Of a stretch of DNA of 64,000 nucleotides, positions 13,060 to 43,541 are shown piece by piece. How positions within the stretch are numbered: position 1 is the first letter of the stretch; every line of letters starts with the position of its first letter. Origin of the DNA: Candidatus Oleincola secundus (GTDB taxonomy: Bacteria > Atribacterota > Phoenicimicrobiia > Phoenicimicrobiales > Stramentimicrobiaceae); assembly GCA_018400815.1 (NCBI GenBank), contig JAGYLS010000001.1:5978-69977 (forward strand), written 5' to 3'. A program made the position numbers and the translations under genes. Below the pieces are notes generated by a model. It saw only the letters and a program-made list of their open reading frames with translations. It ran no database searches and was not told the DNA's origin.

Positions 13060-13710
13060 TTATAATATCATAGTATTAACCATAGAATGTATTTCTTTCA
13101 TAACTAGTTTATCAAAAGACATATCATTTCTAGCCATAGCTGTGTATTTATCAAATTGATAATTAGGATTTAAATCTGGTAGATTAGGATTAAAACTTAA
13201 AGGTTTAATTTCTAATCCTTGAAGCATTATTCTTTTCAATATATACCAAGAGATGGCTTCTTTTAATAAATCATTATTAATTATAATAGGAAACTCTATA
13301 CCTAACTTAGTATCGAGTTCTGTTTTTAATTTCCTATAGGTCATAATCAAAGGAGTATCATCTTGAACTATATCTGTATGTATATACCCATTATGGATTT
13401 TTAATTGTATGTTTGAATTATATTCATTATTAACATTAAAGTTAGGATTATAATTAGGATGATCTATTCTTAATTTATATCCTTTATACTTTATATATTC
13501 TATTTCTTTAATAGAACAAGGTAACTTAGTGTTACCTTCTGTCAATGTTAATTCTTCATCTTCAATTAAATTCCAAACTAAGGGACATCTTATTTCAGAT
13601 AAAGCCTTTTCAATCCACATTGGAGATAAATTAATCCAACCTCTGTGAGGAATATTATAACTAGATAATAAATAAGCTATTATCTCTTTAGAATTAATTA
13701 AATTTTCCAT
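13060..13710 (-). CDS. Hypothetical structural protein, 216 aa.
   Basis: ORF in an operon-like array with 3-12 nt spacers. Confidence 0.5.
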   Translation of the reverse strand: MENLINSKEIIAYLLSSYNIPHRGWINLSPMWIEKALSEIRCPLVWNLIEDEELTLTEGNTKLPCSIKEIEYIKYKGYKLRIDHPNYNPNFNVNNEYNSNIQLKIHNGYIHTDIVQDDTPLIMTYRKLKTELDTKLGIEFPIIINNDLLKEAISWYILKRIMLQGLEIKPLSFNPNLPDLNPNYQFDKYTAMARNDMSFDKLVMKEIHSMVNTMIL

Positions 13711-15591: not shown

Positions 15592-16029
15592 TTATTTAGT
15601 TAAGTTTTTAATTTTAGAAGTTAATCCTCTTTTATCAATAGTTCTCATTCCTGAATATCCAAGATAACCAGCCCCAAATAACCAATACAAATCACTTGGT
15701 ATTGCTGACCAAAAGCCTGTTAATCCTTCTGTAAATGCTAATGCTGCTTCTTGATTGAATGTTCCTACTATTGCTACAGGTATAGCCATCAATATTATAA
15801 TGTAAAATACATACATAAATGAAGGTCTTGCTCTTGAAGTCCACGGATCAGCACTTTTGGCTTCTGTTTTAATTACATCTAATGTTGCTTTCAATTCTTC
15901 AAGTTCACCTTTTCCTTCCATTTCCATCAACTTCATTTTAGCTTCATTCTTAGCTTGTTCTGAAGGAAAGTAATCACTGATTTTATCAATCAATTTTGTA
16001 CCTATATTGAATATTTCTCCTACCATCAT
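15592..16029 (-). CDS. Putative holin. Membrane protein with an N-terminal coiled segment and two predicted TM helices.
   Basis: Hydrophobic stretches SFMYVFYIIILMAIPVAIVGTF and WLFGAGYLGYSGM. Its start codon overlaps the endolysin stop (ATGA). Confidence 0.5.
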   Translation of the reverse strand: MMVGEIFNIGTKLIDKISDYFPSEQAKNEAKMKLMEMEGKGELEELKATLDVIKTEAKSADPWTSRARPSFMYVFYIIILMAIPVAIVGTFNQEAALAFTEGLTGFWSAIPSDLYWLFGAGYLGYSGMRTIDKRGLTSKIKNLTK

Positions 16030-16493
16030 TAATCAATTATGAAAAAATGTACAGCATCAAATAGTTTCTGGTCTTTTAAGTCCCAATCCCCATCCCAATC
16101 TATTCCACAACCTATTCTGTGTTCAATAACTCCTTGCCTATGTAACATCTCTGCTATTCCAATAACATATCCAGCAAAATAGATTATCTTATTTGTATCA
16201 GAATACATTTCAGGATAAGGAACTACATCAACTGCTTTAGATGGAAAATGATTATGATCTGATTTAACATCATGTCCATCACAGTTAGTAACCACTTTGG
16301 ATTTATCTGCAACTTCCCAATACCCATTGACTTTTGTTCTGCCTTTTTTCCAAAGATCAAATTGTTCATCTGGTGTCCTATGACCAAATACAACTGAACA
16401 ATCTACAAACTCTATTATAAAATTGAATAGAGTTTGCAGATCATCATGTGCAGTTGATAATGCTCTTTTACTATTTACAGAGTAAGCAGGCAT
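16029..16493 (-). CDS. Endolysin of the peptidase M15 family (L-Ala-D-Glu peptidase / VanY-like zinc peptidase).
   Basis: Zinc-ligand motifs HRTPDEQ (H-x3-D), SDHNHFPSKAVDVVP (SxHxxGxAxD-like) and a C-terminal D-x-x-H (DAVHFF). Confidence 0.7.
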   Translation of the reverse strand: MPAYSVNSKRALSTAHDDLQTLFNFIIEFVDCSVVFGHRTPDEQFDLWKKGRTKVNGYWEVADKSKVVTNCDGHDVKSDHNHFPSKAVDVVPYPEMYSDTNKIIYFAGYVIGIAEMLHRQGVIEHRIGCGIDWDGDWDLKDQKLFDAVHFFIID

Positions 16494-18127
16494 TAAAGGT
16501 TATATGTTTTGTTAATATTATGGTAATTACCACCAACATTAACATTTTTTATTTCTACAGTATCCCAATCTGATGTTTTTAATGATCTAGATTCACCATC
16601 TTGTTTAACTACTTGTCTATTAGTTGTACCACTTCCATTTTTCTCAAATTTAAGTTTTACATCAAGAGTATCTTTTGTTTTATTTTGAATAAAAACATAA
16701 TTTCCAAGTGTTAAATGAGGTTTTATTAATAATTTAAAAAATGCATTATCATCCAACACTAATTCAGTAACTTTTTCGATTGGATCAAATTTAACAGTTA
16801 CTTTGTGAGAGCCAACGTTATAGTTAAATTCATAATCGTGAAACTTCTCTGGATTAGAGAGATAATAGGCACTGATTATAAAGCTATGTACTTCATTTCT
16901 AAGTGCTAACATTTTCCCAGCAACTCCCGTAGTCCTTGATTCTCCATAAGAGCAATTAACCCTGCAAACAATCCTTTGATCTTTCTTGTTGACATAATGA
17001 TATTTACCATTTTCTTTAAAAAATGCAACATTTTCATCATCATAAATTGTAGTTTCAGGAATATCAACTTCTGGTAATTCGGGTATATCTTCCTCAAAAG
17101 GTTTAGCACCTTCAAATGTAATAGTTGTTCCTTCAACAGAACTTGGTTCATACCTCTTATCTGCTTTAACATAATAGGTTGTAAATTTCCAAGTGCCCCC
17201 CGCATCAAGAAAATAATCAAGTGTGTGTAATACTTTTGATCCTCTTATAGAAGCACTCTTACCATGTGCAGACGATCTGTTGTCAACTATCTCGCCATTT
17301 TTGTCAAGCCGTTTAATTATGAAATAAACTGGTGATGTCTTATTTTCTGCATAAACTGTGTTGTTAGCAACATAAAACACCATGTAATCATCTTCATAAA
17401 TCACATTTTCCCATTGCTTTTGATTTACGGCCATAATTGCCTCATCTTCAATAAGTTCCCCTGTAAATGCATCAGTACCTGTTGCTTTCAATATTACCTC
17501 TGTGTCATTTCCCGAAACAGCGTAACATCTTGTGTAAGGCTTACCATCCCTCCACATTGACCTTGAATATTGGATAAGCTCGCCTTCACCTTTAACAACT
17601 TCGATTTTTGGATTAGCAATATTTTTAGCTGAAAAACCAATCATTACAGGACTTGTATCACCTTCGTTAAAAGTATCGGGTAAACTTACCATAAGTTCAA
17701 CTTCTGCCAGTTCAGGATCATAAATCAAATCAGTGATTTCCTCGCCAATTTCAATGTTATTCATCCAATATATCTGCAACCCCTGATAAATCATATCTTC
17801 AACAGGATCCTTCACCATATTAACGATTTCCTCACTTAGCATTTTTTTGTAAGTCCCATCTGGAAAATAAATACCAGTTTCAATTTCTTCATTATAATCA
17901 AAACCTTCATCCCCCTCTTGCATTGTATCTTCTGATTTTCCTACTATCCATGCATACCATTTTCCGTTCTCAAATTTAAACGGTACTGACCCATACACTC
18001 TCTTAGTGATTGGAGAATACATAAATCCCCAACATCCTGCCAGGTTTATGTCTTTTAGCTCTGCATATACAAAAGTGGGCAATCCTGCTCCGCCTTTGGG
18101 ATTTAATAAAATTTTTGTTGGTTCCAT
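16493..18127 (-). CDS. Hypothetical virion protein, 544 aa. Compositionally chimeric: the N-terminal two thirds are GC-elevated.
   Basis: Complete ORF. GC shifts from about 30% (16493-16900) to about 40% (16900-18127). Confidence 0.5.
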   Translation of the reverse strand: MEPTKILLNPKGGAGLPTFVYAELKDINLAGCWGFMYSPITKRVYGSVPFKFENGKWYAWIVGKSEDTMQEGDEGFDYNEEIETGIYFPDGTYKKMLSEEIVNMVKDPVEDMIYQGLQIYWMNNIEIGEEITDLIYDPELAEVELMVSLPDTFNEGDTSPVMIGFSAKNIANPKIEVVKGEGELIQYSRSMWRDGKPYTRCYAVSGNDTEVILKATGTDAFTGELIEDEAIMAVNQKQWENVIYEDDYMVFYVANNTVYAENKTSPVYFIIKRLDKNGEIVDNRSSAHGKSASIRGSKVLHTLDYFLDAGGTWKFTTYYVKADKRYEPSSVEGTTITFEGAKPFEEDIPELPEVDIPETTIYDDENVAFFKENGKYHYVNKKDQRIVCRVNCSYGESRTTGVAGKMLALRNEVHSFIISAYYLSNPEKFHDYEFNYNVGSHKVTVKFDPIEKVTELVLDDNAFFKLLIKPHLTLGNYVFIQNKTKDTLDVKLKFEKNGSGTTNRQVVKQDGESRSLKTSDWDTVEIKNVNVGGNYHNINKTYNL

Positions 18128-18258
18128 AATTTGTTAATTTTAAATGAATGTTTTAATAATGTAGCCTAAAGCCACAAGCAGTATTCCTATAATTATCAGA
18201 TAAAGGAATAGTGCTGTTTTGTATTTCTTTAATTTTATATTTTTTAAAAGGTCTCTCA

Positions 18259-18648
18259 TTAAATATTATCTGTTGGGTGATTCCTCAAATGAGCATTTTC
18301 AAGATTATGGAATTTAGATTCAATCTTGTTAACCCTCGCTTCAAGTCTATCTACACAGGTTTCAAGTTTCATTATTTTGGTTTCAACAAATTGAATTTTC
18401 ATTGTAACATTACTATCTAATTCCTGAACAGCACTCCTTGTCAACTGATTATCAAGTTTAACATCAGCTATTTGACTTTTTACATCATCAAGTAGTTTCT
18501 TTATGTCATTTAAAGTAGATTGTAAAGAAGTTATCCAATTCTTTCCTCCCCAAAAAATAAATGTTATAGTTCCACCTATTAGTGCAACTGCCAGTATTCC
18601 CACAAACCATTCAGTCATATTATTTAGTATTTTTAGTAATTCATCCAT
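18259..18648 (-). CDS. Membrane-anchored coiled-coil protein, 129 aa. Has i-spanin-like topology, possibly a type II membrane protein.
   Basis: N-terminal TM WFVGILAVALIGGTITFIFW followed by heptad-rich coiled coil. Confidence 0.4.
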   Translation of the reverse strand: MDELLKILNNMTEWFVGILAVALIGGTITFIFWGGKNWITSLQSTLNDIKKLLDDVKSQIADVKLDNQLTRSAVQELDSNVTMKIQFVETKIMKLETCVDRLEARVNKIESKFHNLENAHLRNHPTDNI

Positions 18649-18683: not shown

Positions 18684-19463
18684 TTAAACCACTTCCCATC
18701 CTTGTGGATATGCTGTTGGTGACCAAACATTTGCATCAATCAAAGACCGATAATGAGTTCCTTCAAACATTACTTCATCTCCTGTATTGTAAGCATCATG
18801 CGCACCTGCTGGTTGTGTCCACTCTGGAATAACACCAGGAGGAGCTATTTCAACAAATAATGAAACTGCCACTAAAGGATTCCAATCATTTTGCGAAGTG
18901 TGAGATTGAATTACTTTATATAATTTGCCATCATGCACAACTTTATCATCAATTTCATAAGAAACACCATTTCCACGCCATTGTGAAAATAACATCTTAA
19001 TATCTTCGATGTCTTGTTCAGTTAAATTATCTTCATCAGCAATGATAGGTTCAGCTATTTTTCTTAATAGCCTTTTGGCTGCTTTATCATTGAATTGATT
19101 ATCTTCGATTTGTAATTTCAATTCTTCGTAATCTTCTGTTGATAATTCATCAACCATTGCCTTAGCATAGTTCGCAAAATTGTTATATTCAATAAAAGAA
19201 TCAATATCCTCATTTGCTTGCTTTTTGCGCACAATAGCAGCTTCCTGATCGGCTGTGTATCGGGTGCGGATGATTGCTGTTATAATTGTGCCTCTGTTAA
19301 TGTCAGGAACATTCACATATTGATAATTAAAACTTGCGGGCGTTTCCTCTGTTGCTTCAATTTCTGTAAAATCATACCTGAACTGATACGTTTTATCGGT
19401 AAGAAGTTGTGTTTCGGTTGTCGGTAAGGCTTCATTGCCTTGTTTTGTTCTGTTGCCTTTCAT
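18684..19463 (-). CDS. Protein with two tandem C-terminal CBM5/12 (chitin-binding type 3) carbohydrate-binding modules. Possibly a tail-fibre accessory or adhesin.
   Basis: DGKLYKVIQSHTSQNDWNPLVAVSLFVEI and AYNTGDEVMFEGTHYRSLIDANVWSPTAYPQGWEV match the CBM5/12 consensus (AY..G..V.Y.G..Y.C.Q.HTS..W.P...W). The gene is GC-elevated. Confidence 0.6.
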   Translation of the reverse strand: MKGNRTKQGNEALPTTETQLLTDKTYQFRYDFTEIEATEETPASFNYQYVNVPDINRGTIITAIIRTRYTADQEAAIVRKKQANEDIDSFIEYNNFANYAKAMVDELSTEDYEELKLQIEDNQFNDKAAKRLLRKIAEPIIADEDNLTEQDIEDIKMLFSQWRGNGVSYEIDDKVVHDGKLYKVIQSHTSQNDWNPLVAVSLFVEIAPPGVIPEWTQPAGAHDAYNTGDEVMFEGTHYRSLIDANVWSPTAYPQGWEVV

Positions 19464-19547
19464 GTTATTATTATTATGTCGTTATTATTAATGATTTTGC
19501 GAGCATAGCGAAGCAATCTTATGTTGTTTTTATACTTCATACTATGT

Positions 19548-21149
19548 TTAAAACTCCAGGAAAAGGCGAGAGCCAATGCTCGCATGGCGATCAGACGCAG
19601 GATAGCTGACGCGCAGAGACGCGAGGCCGTCAAACGCACCAAGGTGCAGATAGCCGCCCGCAAAAAGGCCGCGAAAACCAACGGTGGGATAGGCGGTATA
19701 AAAATAATCGCCACAATGGTTTGATCCGCTGCCTGTACCGCCCGTGAGTAGTGGCAGCATAGAGCCTTCTGCAAAGGTATTCACATAACCATTGCCTTCA
19801 GCTATGTTTTTGTAAAACTCATAATTTGTAAAAGTATCGTCAGCAAAATTTGCAGGATTTTTACAAATGTATGTTTCTGAATTTTCGGCACTGTTGTAAA
19901 TGTTAATGCCATCCTTCCACTCCCATATATGCCCAAAAACATCGCGCTGCCAGTGGAAAATAGCCATCTGCGTGCTTAAATCGCCTGTGCCACCTACAAA
20001 ATCACTAACAGTAAGTGGTATGCTGCCATTGCGGACATTAGCGGTATTCGGGTCAGCAGGTGTGGCAGTAACCGTTCCTGCTCCTGTTGCCGCTGCGCTT
20101 CCTCCGTCAGTTGTCCATACAGGATTGTAGGCGTTGTAGCTACTCCAATCGTCGCTACTTGCATTTGATGCGCCATCTCCCAGGTTTGTTTGTGAGTTCA
20201 TGTTCAAAAACTCAACCAACATCAGCCAGTATTTCATTTCATAATACCAAAATGGTTCCTGGCTCCATTTGCTGTGTGCTGTTTTATTTTGCGCGTAGGT
20301 ACGAAATTCAGATCGGCCTTTATTCGTTGTTGGCGTTACGCCTGAAATACTTCGCAGCTTACTATCTCCTGCAAGGTCAGCGTAGGCAGGGTAAATGCCT
20401 ACTGCATGTTTTGGCACTTCAATAAATCCTGGCAGTGCATACTTGCTAAACATGATTTGTTGTTTGTTACGCAAAGTATCTCTGTATGCTTTGAAATACA
20501 TACGTTCATACACCGTCATTACATCACCATCAGCACCTGTAAGAACAGATGCAGTAACTCCATCTTCTTTCAGTGAAAGATTTGTTGGGTCAAGTTTATA
20601 GGCAATTGTTCCATCTTCTTCAACCACAGCAGGGTAGATCATGTCATAACCAGTTACTGCATTTTGTGCAAACAAAACAGGATTACCTATTGCAGTAACA
20701 GTTGAATTTGTTTGACCTGGTGTCCATTCTACGCCGTACCAATATGTATCAAATGAATTGAATATTGGGTCATTCATCACTACATAATCACTTGCCCCTG
20801 TGTACATCACATCAACATACTCCCATTGGTATCTTAATGTTGCTATTGTATCACCATTATAATCAGTTACAGCTACAGTACCAGATGTATCATCTACTTT
20901 TTGTATTCTGAATCTGACATTTGTTAGGGTACTCGAATACAAAGGGTGAGAACCATAAATTTGAAATTCTAAATCATCTGTACCTGTAGTAAACAGATAA
21001 TGATTGTAACCTTCATAATCAGATACACTCTGACTTGTAGATACCGCAATAGGATTAAAAATAGTCGATGTAATAACAATAGGTGTAGTATCACTTGTTA
21101 AATCTGATATTCTTAAATCTCCTAATATATAATCATAAACTAGTCCCAT
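19548..21149 (-). CDS. Tail fibre / receptor-binding protein. It has an AT-rich N-terminal phage-type anchor and a GC-rich C-terminal FGE-sulfatase / C-type-lectin-like domain.
   Basis: C-terminal motifs FGHIWEWKDG (FGE 'GNVWEW') and GG..LG....RVSYPASDRHASIGSRL (FGE 'RGGSW..R.AYR....R..IGFR'). GC jumps from about 30% to 45-58% at about 20750. Confidence 0.6.
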   Translation of the reverse strand: MGLVYDYILGDLRISDLTSDTTPIVITSTIFNPIAVSTSQSVSDYEGYNHYLFTTGTDDLEFQIYGSHPLYSSTLTNVRFRIQKVDDTSGTVAVTDYNGDTIATLRYQWEYVDVMYTGASDYVVMNDPIFNSFDTYWYGVEWTPGQTNSTVTAIGNPVLFAQNAVTGYDMIYPAVVEEDGTIAYKLDPTNLSLKEDGVTASVLTGADGDVMTVYERMYFKAYRDTLRNKQQIMFSKYALPGFIEVPKHAVGIYPAYADLAGDSKLRSISGVTPTTNKGRSEFRTYAQNKTAHSKWSQEPFWYYEMKYWLMLVEFLNMNSQTNLGDGASNASSDDWSSYNAYNPVWTTDGGSAAATGAGTVTATPADPNTANVRNGSIPLTVSDFVGGTGDLSTQMAIFHWQRDVFGHIWEWKDGINIYNSAENSETYICKNPANFADDTFTNYEFYKNIAEGNGYVNTFAEGSMLPLLTGGTGSGSNHCGDYFYTAYPTVGFRGLFAGGYLHLGAFDGLASLRVSYPASDRHASIGSRLFLEF

Positions 21150-21152
21150 AAT

Positions 21153-21485
21153 CTAAAATGTTATATTAGTTCCTGTAAAAGCATATATTTTAGCCCTATT
21201 ATCATTCAACCATGTTTCTTCTACATAATCTCTACTAACATTACCACCATCAGCAACTTCTACAGTTTTAGTAAGAGTTAGTTTTCTAATAGCCCACTTT
21301 TCATCAGAAGCCGCAGTTTCAGATGATTCAGGATAACCTATATAAATAGTAGTCACATTAGAATCGGCAGTCAACACATTAGATACATATTTTCCACCAT
21401 TTAGAACTATAGTTCTTTTTATTGGTTCATTTCCTATACTTAAAACTTCAGGTATTGTGTAATTCATTATTTTATTCTTTAACAA
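21153..21485 (-). CDS. Hypothetical tail-associated protein, 110 aa.
   Basis: ORF overlapping its neighbour by 14 nt. Confidence 0.45.
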   Translation of the reverse strand: MLKNKIMNYTIPEVLSIGNEPIKRTIVLNGGKYVSNVLTADSNVTTIYIGYPESSETAASDEKWAIRKLTLTKTVEVADGGNVSRDYVEETWLNDNRAKIYAFTGTNITF

Positions 21486-30896: not shown

Positions 30897-32360
30897 TTAA
30901 GTTCTCTCCAACCAAAATGAAGTAGTGGGATTAGTCATATAAATACCCATAGAACTCATAATTTCATAAGTAGCAATATCTTGTCTAGTTGAAAGTAAAC
31001 TTTCAGGAACAGAACCCCAAACAGGAGGCAATGGAGACATACCTTTATAAACACCAGTTATATATTCTCTACCTTTTTCTGCAATAAGACCAATATTTCT
31101 ACCACCATCATCAGTACGAGAATGGTCAAGAGATACCATATTATAAGAATAAGCAGGAAAACCAGCAATCATATTACCATTGGCTCTATCCTTTTCAGCT
31201 TGTGGGCCATGATTAAACAGATTAGTATTTATGATACTTATGATCTTACCATCAATAGTTTTATACTGATTAAAGTATTTACCATAAGTAAGATAACCAT
31301 CAGATTCTCCAATTACCCTATCGCCAAGAGGAATCATATATGTATTGGTATTAGCATCGTCTTGTAATGCTTTATTAAATTGACGAATACCACCATCACC
31401 TGTATAAATAATAATTTCAGTAGGAGTATTATCTACTCTATTACCAAATGCTGAAACAATAGTACTATCTATCTTCGCTAATGTTAAATCTGAATAAGTA
31501 TCATAATTTCCAATAGATGTTACAATTTCCTTAACCCCAGCTGTTTCTGGAACAGGTTCATGTGTTTCTTCATCTATTAAAGTAATATTACCTTTTTCAT
31601 CCCTATTAAATTCAGAGTGCCACAGATGATCTTCTTCAAGTAACATCCTATCAATATCAAATCGTTTCATATCAAAAGGCATCCACATATCAGTAGTTCC
31701 ACCATTATCTAATGGTAAACGAATGTTTAAAGTTTTATTAGATACATTACCAGCAATATGCTTAGACCATCTATGTAAACCAAATTGACTAACCCATTCA
31801 CCGGGTGTCATAGTATTATCTCTATTTCCACCTGCTTTACTTAAAGGAACAGTAGGTGCTGTAAGTACCCAATATTTACCAACAGCAAATTCGGTAACAG
31901 GAATACCTGCTCCAGTAGTATCTTTAGATTGAACTAAGTAATAATGAAAACCATCTGATTGTTTACCCATTTCCTTTTCAATACGAATCCTATATCCACC
32001 AGAAGGAGACATAGCACCATATTGTTTAATAAACATACCATCTCTCATTTTAATAGTAAATAAAGCATGGCCTTTACCAACATTTCCACTACCACTAACA
32101 CCAGCACATTCAGATACATGCTTCATCCTACCAAATACTTTCCAAGTAAAAGTAGTATCGTTAGCCCGTATAGGAGTTTTAGATTTCATTAATCCTTCGC
32201 CTCTTGTTTTAGTTAGCAAAGGAAAAATATCACTATCTTTACCATACATATAAGTCATATTAATATCTAACTGAACTGGATCAATCAGCTTATTTCTATA
32301 TAACAAATTTTCATCTGCGTAAAGATTAGAATCATAAGTTGTTACACTTAATTCTTTCAT
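30897..32360 (-). CDS. Candidate major capsid protein, 487 aa.
   Basis: Position after the scaffold-like gene and portal. The size is typical of HK97-fold major capsid proteins of large podo- or sipho-like phages. There is no explicit motif, so the call rests on synteny. Confidence 0.35.
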   Translation of the reverse strand: MKELSVTTYDSNLYADENLLYRNKLIDPVQLDINMTYMYGKDSDIFPLLTKTRGEGLMKSKTPIRANDTTFTWKVFGRMKHVSECAGVSGSGNVGKGHALFTIKMRDGMFIKQYGAMSPSGGYRIRIEKEMGKQSDGFHYYLVQSKDTTGAGIPVTEFAVGKYWVLTAPTVPLSKAGGNRDNTMTPGEWVSQFGLHRWSKHIAGNVSNKTLNIRLPLDNGGTTDMWMPFDMKRFDIDRMLLEEDHLWHSEFNRDEKGNITLIDEETHEPVPETAGVKEIVTSIGNYDTYSDLTLAKIDSTIVSAFGNRVDNTPTEIIIYTGDGGIRQFNKALQDDANTNTYMIPLGDRVIGESDGYLTYGKYFNQYKTIDGKIISIINTNLFNHGPQAEKDRANGNMIAGFPAYSYNMVSLDHSRTDDGGRNIGLIAEKGREYITGVYKGMSPLPPVWGSVPESLLSTRQDIATYEIMSSMGIYMTNPTTSFWLERT

Positions 32361-41041: not shown

Positions 41042-41525
41042 CGAATACTTTATTAGCTTCTTTAGTAGTAAGTTTAATTTCTGAATCTAAATCTAATAAT
41101 TGTTTAGCTGCTTCTGAAGTAGAATCATAATAACCTAATATTCCATAAGCGGGAATAATAACATATTCTTCTAACTTATATCTTTTAATTCTACTAATTA
41201 TTATCTTTCTTTGGTCAGGTGTTAGCTTTTCAAATAAACTAGAATAATATTTAAATGATTTAGTATTATTAGGTAAGTTAACACCAAAAGGAGCTGAATT
41301 AGTATAATCATTAGTTAGTTTAACTACATCACCTATTTGAAAACCATGTGTAGTTGGCCCATATCCTTCTACAGTTAATACAGTTTTATCATTATAATCT
41401 TTAGGTATTTTACCTTGACTAAAAGCCATAGCTGATACATTATAACTAATCTTCAATAATACATTATCTCCAATTAGTTTAATAGGTTGTCTTGTTTGTG
41501 GTGGTCTTGATTGTGTAAAGTCCAT
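41034..41525 (-). CDS. First gene of the minus-strand arm, 163 aa. It has a weak GroES-like co-chaperonin pattern.
   Basis: IKLIGDNVLLK ... GKIPKDYNDKTVLTVEGYGP ... FQIGDVVKL resembles GroES (P.GDRVLVK ... G.VVAVGPG ... VKVGDKV). The similarity is low. Confidence 0.3.
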   Translation of the reverse strand: MDFTQSRPPQTRQPIKLIGDNVLLKISYNVSAMAFSQGKIPKDYNDKTVLTVEGYGPTTHGFQIGDVVKLTNDYTNSAPFGVNLPNNTKSFKYYSSLFEKLTPDQRKIIISRIKRYKLEEYVIIPAYGILGYYDSTSEAAKQLLDLDSEIKLTTKEANKVFDV

Positions 41526-42791
41526 AAATTTAATGTTTAATTAGTAATGTATATTAATATGTAAAACAAATATTAGCTGAAAAATATTTTCTTTTAACTG
41601 GGCTAGTTCTAATTAGAACATTTTTATATAATTGCAAGTAATAATTTTTTATTATTATATACATTATAAATAATTTGTTTTAATTTTTGCAATCTTCCTT
41701 AAATTAATTTTTATAATTTAAAATAATTTTTTATTATCGTATTTTATAATTTCAATTAGTTATTTTTTAATTATTTTTCAAATAATTACAAACAACTATT
41801 TCAATTACAAAATATAAAACTTTTTAAATATATCTTAAATCTTAAATACTTGGCAAAGTTAGTAAAAATAAATGACAATGGCAACTACATTTAACATTTT
41901 TTAACATTTTTTAATTTATAACTACTTGATTATCAATACTTTACAAATAGATATATTTTTATCAATATTAAAAACTCTACTATTATCTATTGTATATTCT
42001 ACATTTACAATCATTAAATCTATTTTTGTTATTATTAATATTATTATCAATATCTTTATTAAATTTATTATATAATCAAATAATTACACAACATCTTGTA
42101 AGCCTGCCCGGAGGTTCTTCGGAAAATAATACATATAATTGGCACGACTTTTCCAATATCTACTATAATCTACTATTTAACCTAATGTTTAAACTAATGT
42201 ATTAAGTCTATTAGCAACTATAGTATTTAATAAATCAACTAAATTATTAGTTCAGAGACAATAAAAATACACCATAATAAATAGATATTAAATAAATAAA
42301 CTGTGATTAATAATATAGATGCTATAATAATACTAATAATATAGATTTTAATAATAGTAGAATAATACTAAATAATATTATGATATTTTAGAAATAACAT
42401 TAGGTTATATGATAGAAATTTAAATAATATATAATAATGAAGATTGATTTATTCTGTGGTTGATTTTAATAATTGATTAAATTGTAGATTGAGATAGGTA
42501 AAATTTAAAATTATAAAATGTAATTTTAAGCATGAGTCTCTCTTATCCTATACCCCCACTACAATTTTGGTTTTGAAGTACCCCGTCTCTTTTTGTCAGA
42601 GGTATTATTACTAATGTTAAAAAGGGACCCTTTACACTTGTCTCTCCTCATATTCACGCAATGGTTGATAATAGAAATCAGGCAGCATTCTTACCTAATG
42701 CTCCTCGCACACTTAGCAATAAAGTCTGCCTGATTATTTTTAATGATTGATGAAATGATCCTATACATACGACAATAGTGGTCTTGGCTTT
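41526..42791. promoter_or_regulatory. A 1.27-kb AT-rich divergent intergenic region. Presumed to hold early and late promoters and possibly an origin.
   Basis: No ORF. Very AT-rich (over 80%) until 42.5 kb. A 10-bp tandem repeat ttaacatttt x2.5 lies at 41891-41915, and iteron-like aataatacta(a)ataata copies lie at 42330-42400. Confidence 0.5.
42676..42745 (+). promoter_or_regulatory. Hairpin plus U-run upstream of the moron gene. It could be a terminator, an attenuator or a small RNA.
   Basis: aatcaggcag...ctgcctgatt forms a 10-bp stem with an inner gcatt/aatgc stem. It is followed by atttttaat. Confidence 0.35.
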
Positions 42792-43541
42792 ATGCCTATT
42801 TTTAATGTAATTAATATGTTTAATTTAAAATCTTATCTTATGAAAAGAGATGAATTTAGTGCTAAGATGATTGAACTTAATGTTGACGCAGCAGATGTTG
42901 ACAGATTAGTAGCAATTCCCGGTATCAATGGCAAAACTTATGCTCAATATGCAAAGAGAATTGCTGAATCTGGTGATCCGATCAATGAAGTAACTGCAAT
43001 CATTGCCGAAAGCATCCCGGTAGATGATAATGTATTCTCCATTGACAGACCAGAAAGAGTACTGGCTACTGGTAAAATTGTATCCTGCAAAGTACAAAAA
43101 GCGTACAAAGGATCAACAGCCAGTGTAGTTAATGAAGATGGCAGTGTAACATTACCTACAACAGATTGGCAACGTACTCATTACAGATTAGTTTTGTCTG
43201 TAGACAATGATGTTATCGTTGTTATAGCCGGACACAGGAAAATGTATCAACAAACAGAAGAGATGTTGAGTGATTCGGAAATGTCCATTGATCGTAAAAT
43301 CATTAATGCGGTAAATGGTAAAAATGCTACCCTTGAATTTGATGTGTTTAAACCTGGTAAAATATATCAGATTGAAGGTAGTGATACTGTTAAAAGACCT
43401 GATGTCCTCGAAAGACATTTAGTAGACTTATCCATTGGTGAATCCGAAGATCAACGAAGGATCGAGTTCATTCAAAAACTCATGGAAATCTCAGGAGGAC
43501 AGTTAACCCCAGAGATAGTAGAGTTGAGCAAGTCTATCTAA
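42792..43541 (+). CDS. Hypothetical protein encoded by a GC-elevated (about 40%) moron. The likely start is ATG at 42840.
   Basis: ORF with codon usage unlike the rest of the phage. It is flanked by its own structured leader and a terminator. No family recognised. Confidence 0.55.
   Translation: MPIFNVINMFNLKSYLMKRDEFSAKMIELNVDAADVDRLVAIPGINGKTYAQYAKRIAESGDPINEVTAIIAESIPVDDNVFSIDRPERVLATGKIVSCKVQKAYKGSTASVVNEDGSVTLPTTDWQRTHYRLVLSVDNDVIVVIAGHRKMYQQTEEMLSDSEMSIDRKIINAVNGKNATLEFDVFKPGKIYQIEGSDTVKRPDVLERHLVDLSIGESEDQRRIEFIQKLMEISGGQLTPEIVELSKSI

Follow-up and report, generated by a model that had tools for sequence, protein, structure and literature searches.

Diversity-generating retroelements (DGRs) of crAss-like phages have been described as cassettes in which a target gene ends in a variable repeat (VR) with an initiation of mutagenic homing (IMH) sequence, followed by a template repeat (TR) with the related IMH* and by a lineage-3 reverse transcriptase (RT), without an avd gene (PMC7290462). 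Among 91 genomes of genus I (AlphacrAssvirinae), 15 had complete cassettes and 80 had VRs, with only 30 having TRs (PMC7290462). DGR elements have been reported in the Alpha, Delta, Epsilon and Zeta groups, with the RT fragmented or deleted in some Epsilon phages, whose receptor-binding protein is TaqVP-like (PMC11054128), and both complete and fragmentary cassettes are found in Alpha and Epsilon phages (PMC12386605). The mechanism is not new, complete and fragmentary crAss-like cassettes having already been published. The subject of this study is a 64-kb stretch of DNA (64,000 nucleotides, hereafter the window) from an 88,545-nt contig assigned to Candidatus Oleincola secundus, and in particular the 3' end of a tail-protein gene at 19548..21149 on the minus strand, which a first-pass annotation had proposed as a candidate DGR variable region on account of its adenine depletion. 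The results support the interpretation of 19557-19682 as the VR of a DGR target gene encoding a receptor-binding tail protein of a crAss-like phage, since homologous genes mostly carry a TR and an RT downstream and the differences sit on template adenines.

The locus shares with the cassettes of crAssphage LMMB, AlphacrAssvirinae genus I and the Epsilon and Zeta phages a tail or receptor-binding target with the VR at its 3' end, and the order of target, VR (IMH), TR (IMH*) and RT, without avd, recurs in its relatives. The closest of these is L001, a 4.5-kb Logan contig (SRR33375162), whose RT shows 44-49% identity to its counterparts in cr55_1, cr52_1 and cr50_1. The window phage is nevertheless distant from the described families. 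Its major capsid protein (30897-32360, minus strand) is 41% identical to its best match, cr127_1 of the Crevaviridae, identity between the target protein and the tail proteins of cr55_1 and cr50_1 amounts to only about 25%, and the nearest homologues of the target occur in integrase-bearing elements (L001 and L013) and not in crAss-like phages. The locus thus appears to add a divergent crAss-like lineage to the phages with a DGR-shaped host-recognition tip.

Outside the crAss-like phages, the closest structural match of the modelled protein is TaqVP (PDB 5vf4), at no more than 18% sequence identity. TaqVP comes from a bacterium and is not part of a phage tail, and the window protein has in addition a presumed N-terminal anchor and a beta-rich middle domain. 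In the DGR of Bordetella phage BPP-1 (Mtd, TR, Avd and bRT), adenine-specific mutagenic retrohoming is likewise directed into the C-terminal C-type-lectin-fold tip of a tail protein, with AAY template codons and an IMH at the end of the VR, for which the window has a putative IMH-like counterpart. Unlike BPP-1, the family of the window locus is without avd, its fold resembles that of Mtd only weakly, a search for a hairpin after the window VR was negative, and TR and RT are absent from the 64-kb region.

Adenine-specific differences in the variable repeat

L001 encodes P0002, the nearest homologue of the window protein (76% protein identity). Its positions 197-2827 (L001:197-2827) were called as a single open reading frame (ORF) of 876 aa containing the target gene, the template repeat and an RVT_1 reverse transcriptase in one frame. 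L001 holds one copy of the repeat, and the fusion therefore probably arose when VR and TR collapsed during Logan assembly, or possibly through genuine recombination between the two. The RT begins about 118 nt after the repeat and has the motifs GNYVSQ (DGR hallmark GxxxSQ) and YADD, and an integrase-like gene is located beside the cassette. Where the window reads GGYLHLGAFDGLASLRVSYPASDRHASIGSRL, L001 has GGNLNNGANDGLAYLNVNNPASNRNANIGSHL, an asparagine-rich template. The adenines of this TR are concentrated at codon positions 1 and 2 (12, 13 and 1 at positions 1, 2 and 3), in AAY codons (four AAC and six AAT), and a stop codon is unreachable by any A-to-N change. The abundance of NNC codons in the VR had earlier been described as consistent with diversification from AAC, but the L001 template has six AAT codons beside its four AAC.

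In the 90-nt VR core (19569..19658, minus strand), 14 of the 23 A sites of the L001 template differ, compared with only one of the 67 non-A sites (Fisher p = 1.2e-9). Differences are thus virtually confined to adenines, the template being that of a relative rather than one from the same genome. When the templates of L068, L069 and L013 were used instead, 17-20 mismatches were obtained among 67-69 non-A sites, and the adenine pattern is accordingly specific to an L001-type template. On this sequence comparison, the pattern reads as the footprint of mutagenic retrohoming from such a template, and the candidate variable region of the first-pass annotation is borne out. That annotation would have abandoned the proposal if no template-like repeat or RT existed anywhere in the genome and the segment did not vary in populations; this is too strict, because the adenine-specific differences from the template of a relative demonstrate that a retroelement was at the origin even without an RT in the genome.

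Directly upstream of the core on the coding strand, a 5' part of the VR or scaffold (GTTGGTTTTCGCGG..., encoding VGFRG) was recognized at 19659..19682 (minus strand), with an uncertain 5' limit. It comprises a 14-nt block identical to L001 followed by a few non-A mismatches, and the VR/TR homology of L013 begins at the equivalent position. At the other end, the IMH-like sequence CGCCTTTTCCT (19558..19568, minus strand) is identical among the VRs of the window, L013, L068 and L069, while all four templates read CACC(AG/TA)(TT/AT/TC)CC in its place. This arrangement fits an IMH/IMH* pair, a function proposed from the sequences, and suggests that the window VR may still be a formally competent target.

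A terminator-like hairpin was observed inside the VR/IMH end at 19566-19583 on the minus strand (GCGAG, loop, CTCGC, then CTTTTCC). Compared with the L001 template, A-site differences account for one base of the stem and for the CGC in the 3' arm. A similar 5-bp stem is present in L068, and the hairpin is probably incidental because L069 and L013 are without it.

The gene boundaries in the first-pass annotation were confirmed (ORF of 533 aa). On the coding strand, 19551-19680 contains 7.7% A, 33.1% T and 59.2% G+C, and the last 126 nt (19551-19676) contain 7.9%, 32.5% and 59.5%, respectively; for the latter the annotated value of about 8% A was reproduced, but those of about 28% T and about 64% G+C were a few points off. 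The 130 nt upstream of the depleted stretch have 26.9% A, above the 21-25% originally given, and the window background of 35.8% A agrees with the estimate of about 35% (T, 36.7%; G+C, 27%). The reported 10 T in 130 nt on the plus strand is an exact count and the minimum among all 130-nt segments of the window (mean 47.7, sd 8.1; z = -4.65), the second-lowest count outside the 19551-19680 region being 25. Other 130-nt segments with at least 50% G+C have 28-47 T, and those within the target gene keep 24-32% A. Adenine is low while T is high, a strand asymmetry not to be expected from G+C enrichment alone. None of the 43 terminal codons has A at position 3, compared with 28-30% in the remaining gene, and amino-acid bias was rejected as the cause of the depletion because these synonymous third positions likewise lack A. 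A loss of adenine that is confined to one strand at the 3' terminus of a tail gene may therefore be enough by itself to flag a retroelement-written receptor-binding site, even with no retroelement in the sequence at hand.

Cassettes of the relatives and the slot in the window

An adenine-tolerant ungapped scan covering both strands of the 64-kb window gave no template-like repeat, and a general repeat search of the window returned nothing involving the depleted region. Neither tblastn with a related RT nor a YxDD scan revealed an RT in the window, and a hidden Markov model of 60 DGR RTs, run with filters off against all six-frame window ORFs of at least 40 aa, likewise gave no RT (best E = 0.17). 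For an avd-type gene, the neighbouring small ORFs of the window were without such a match in Pfam and PHROGs. Of a complete cassette, RT and template repeat were thus missing from the window, as the first-pass annotation had noted, and an avd-type gene from the neighbouring small ORFs; avd is dispensable, since the lineage-3 DGRs of crAss-like phages are without it (PMC7290462). The RT and template searches covered the window, with about 24.5 kb of the source contig lying outside it.

An indirect test was made by searching the L001 RT against a collection of 5.8 billion proteins. None of its best 120 relatives (at least 48% identity) came from the source contig of the window phage, although a cognate RT for an L001-type template should be expected to rank first. 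The search did recover the RT of L013 and probably that of P0010's contig, but it omitted P0002, which contains the query, and is for this reason weak-to-moderate evidence. Scans with the VR/TR pattern gave no match in IMG/VR; a scan of JGI metagenomes gave none either, and one of GTDB genomes yielded chance matches only, in high-G+C bacteria. Megablast against GenBank phages gave no match, nor did exact-match searches with three window proteins.

The family survey took in the 28 loci with a match extending over the VR region, namely L012, L013 and 26 loci of IMG/VR. In 21 of the 28 the RT lies immediately downstream of the target, with a TR between the two in 20 of these 21 as judged by blastn, and in one further locus (L058) the RT lies about 1.1 kb upstream of the target. 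The terminal 130 nt were lower in A than the preceding 130 nt in 27 of the 28 loci. In L013, a prophage-like, integrase-bearing part of a bacterial contig of 838 kb, the VR is followed after 76 nt by a TR (88% identical over 114 nt) and then by an RT that is 64% identical to the L001 RT. The same layout was found in L068 and L069, and no avd-type gene was seen between target and RT in the gene tables or Pfam columns of L001, L013, L068 and L069.

The RT ORFs of L013 (L013:11265-12791), L068 (L068:5096-6700) and L069 (L069:2887-4494) were called at 508-535 aa, apparently because the TR and the TR-RT spacer are open and in frame with the RT. By frame arithmetic, made for L013 only, the TR of L013 is in its VR-equivalent frame. 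Such lengths could stem from faulty gene calling; alternatively, the RT ORF may have an N-terminal extension within which the template is located.

Judging from the sequences, orphan VRs are a recurrent feature of the family. The crAss-like L012, an 89-kb contig, has an adenine-depleted VR with no TR or RT within 10 kb. The VRs of L027 (96,009 nt) and L046 (99,817 nt), both from IMG/VR, fit the template of L028, and no RT was found within 10 kb of either; a degenerate 24-mer common to VR and TR had one match per whole contig in L027 and L046 and two in L028. These two contigs of crAss-like size thus provide another instance of presence/absence polymorphism of the TR-RT cassette. It was also observed that in L016 and L017 the target gene is followed at about 40 nt by a template-like repeat (L016:11279-11387 and L017:11342-11450), with no RT detected by tblastn (E < 1e-5) in the following 7-8 kb or so; their RT may be degraded or divergent.

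In L001, L068 and L069 the TR-RT unit separates the target gene from the homologue of the gene that comes next in the window. By this synteny, the slot of the relatives' TR and RT is occupied in the window by an AT-rich spacer of only 84 nt (19464..19547, minus strand; 26% G+C). Similarity of the spacer to L001 and L013 was not above that of shuffled controls and no deletion scar was seen; its folding was no better than that of shuffles (z +1.07), and there is no notable hairpin after the VR. The gene beyond the spacer (18684..19463, minus strand) consists of a conserved N-terminal part of about 105 aa followed by CBM_5_12 carbohydrate-binding repeats (Pfam CBM_5_12, E 2.4e-14). Its N-terminal part is 76% identical to orf185 of L001, 62% to the matching gene of L068 and 54% to that of L069, each being the gene directly after the RT. 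Presence/absence polymorphism of the TR-RT cassette is thereby documented at one conserved slot. In the crAss-like L070, too, the target and the gene of a CBM_5_12 protein are direct neighbours and no RT intervenes. The product of 18684-19463 is chimeric, as its C-terminal half has two CBM_5_12 repeats which orf185 of L001 is without.

The segment 19159-20646, which contains the receptor-binding module and the first 105 or so codons of the next gene, has 39-44% G+C compared with 27% for the genome and 41% for L001. Along this segment the identity to L001 varies in mosaic fashion between 52 and 95% per 60 nt. As its G+C content matches L001 and not the genome, and its identity is mosaic, the module looks horizontally acquired and recombined, and exchange seems to have taken place with integrase-bearing elements.

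Origin and present state of the variable repeat

The phage genome probably has no cassette of its own, so that the VR would be an orphan and now frozen. With template and RT neither in the canonical slot nor elsewhere in the 64 kb, the VR is most likely an orphan, and this estimate also draws on the strong rule of RT adjacency in the family, the recurrence of orphan VRs and the RT search without a source-contig match. An RNA copy of a template repeat of the type found in L001 would have been reverse-transcribed by a DGR-type RT misincorporating opposite adenines, and the mutagenised cDNA would have replaced the end of the target gene. In the C-type-lectin-fold domain, this rewriting would have affected the ligand-binding face, where about 14 codon positions became random, but not the codons of the scaffold. 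The TR-RT cassette would have been deleted, or would not have been co-transferred when the G+C-richer receptor-binding module entered the AT-rich phage. The DGR steps of this scheme are those of the established DGR mechanism.

Several observations weigh against an orphan and frozen VR. The searched window leaves out some 24.5 kb of the source contig (88,545 nt), and the protein search with the L001 RT was not exhaustive, having omitted the query-containing P0002. With no deletion scar in the 84-nt spacer, loss of the cassette is indistinguishable from its never having been acquired. At non-A sites the VR and the L001 template agree in 66 of 67 positions, far more closely than the flanking gene agrees with L001 (about 77% identity, mosaic, 52-95%), and a long-frozen relic would not obviously keep such a match, which leaves room for recent or continuing rewriting. 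That the VR is closer to the L001 template than its flanks are suggests that the last rewriting, or a recombination patch, was recent relative to the divergence of the flanks. The 533-aa protein is moreover a singleton.

A complete and active DGR, with template and RT in the 24.5 kb or so beyond the window and hence at least 19.5 kb to the left or at least 43 kb to the right of the target, appears unlikely. That just one of 67 non-A sites distinguishes the VR from an L001-type template, that the IMH-like end is intact and identical to that of complete relatives, and that part of the genome lies outside the searched window would all agree with it, and bacterial DGRs with remote targets exist. 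However, the RT adjoins the target in 21 of the 28 surveyed loci and lies only about 1.1 kb upstream in L058, and it is also immediately downstream in L001, L013, L068 and L069; no relative showed a remote cassette, L027 and L046 being without a second copy of the repeat in 96-100 kb, and the top 120 relatives of the L001 RT include none from the source contig. It is also conceivable, though quite unlikely, that the phage lacks a cassette and that an L001-like temperate phage sharing its host supplies the DGR by which this VR is rewritten in trans. An integrase-like gene stands beside the L001 cassette and likewise in the prophage L013, 66 of 67 non-A sites are common to the VR and the L001 template despite a gene identity of about 77%, the IMH-like sequence is conserved, and the G+C content of the module is like that of L001 and unlike that of the phage. 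There is however no evidence of a shared host or sample for L001 and the window phage, the mosaic identity reaches 95% so that a recently recombined patch explains the match equally well, and we know of no demonstration in nature of trans action between different phage genomes. If true, the hypermutation machinery of one phage would diversify the receptor-binding protein of another.

An explanation without any retroelement, in which the composition came from a G+C-rich donor or from the amino-acid make-up of the domain, is highly improbable. The high-G+C donor suggested as an alternative in the first-pass annotation gains something from the homologous module at 19159-20646, with its 39-44% G+C in a 27% genome, but it cannot account for the adenine-specific pattern. 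It is A that is depleted (7.7%) and not T (33%), other segments of the gene with at least 50% G+C keep 24-32% A, A is absent from position 3 in all 43 codons, and the differences from the RT-linked L001 template fall on adenines (p = 1.2e-9). Pure high-G+C donor composition was rejected, as the depletion is adenine-specific and located at template-A sites.

The target protein and its phage

The target gene (19548..21149, minus strand) matches phrog_5302, 'tail protein', in PHROGs (E 7.6e-58), and homologues of its 533-aa product in the crAss-like phages cr55_1, cr50_1 and cr111_1 are annotated as tail protein; it can thus be regarded as a receptor-binding tail protein. A Pfam search of the protein gave no match and a PDB profile search no meaningful one. 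The search across 5.8 billion proteins yielded 47 homologues, and the protein forms a singleton cluster, with the nearest non-identical homologue at 76% identity.

Apart from P0001, which is the identical protein and is encoded on one NCBI contig of 88,545 nt, the closest homologues (P0002-P0014) cover only the C-terminal 72-77% or so, and tblastn matches begin near residue 137. The N-terminal part of about 136 aa (20742..21149, minus strand) therefore appears lineage-specific. It is AT-rich (32% G+C), has an AlphaFold predicted local distance difference test score (pLDDT) below 35, and is presumed to be the virion anchor.

The C-terminal domain (aa 270-533; 19551..20342, minus strand) was modelled from 45 sequences, the full-length model from 12 sequences being too poor (pLDDT 51). 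Its closest structure was 5vf4, TaqVP, the DGR variable protein of Thermus aquaticus (score 16.2, 192 residues aligned), followed by 1y4j, a paralogue of the formylglycine-generating enzyme (8.7), 2y3c, TvpA (8.4), 1yu0, Mtd (7.7), and 5ioo, AvpA (6.3), after which many canonical C-type lectins were listed. On the model, the domain is predicted to have a C-type-lectin fold, a resemblance that holds at the structural level only. The VR would accordingly lie at the 3' end of the gene within a ligand-binding domain of this fold. The gene end had been described from the sequence as a formylglycine-generating enzyme (FGE)-sulfatase/C-type-lectin-fold domain, with which the model agrees, TaqVP being the best match and the FGE paralogue also matching.

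The capsid match, a weak CrAss_Ring_1 match at 13060-13710, the source contig of 88,545 nt, the opposed gene blocks and the position of lysis genes beside the tail genes indicate that the window belongs to a crAss-like phage (Crassvirales). The genes switch strand at about 41500-42800, from a minus-strand structural block to a plus-strand block with helicases, and the minimum of the cumulative GC skew coincides with this switch.

Upstream of the target gene there is a small gene of 110 aa (21153..21485, minus strand), a weakly conserved neighbour of the target that was recognized by tblastn with the upstream fragment of L001 (38% identity over 37 aa, E 2e-5). A lysis block adjoins the tail genes (15592-18648, minus strand), with a holin at 15592-16029 (phrog_3427), an endolysin at 16029-16493 (phrog_465) and a weak spanin-like ORF at 18259-18648.

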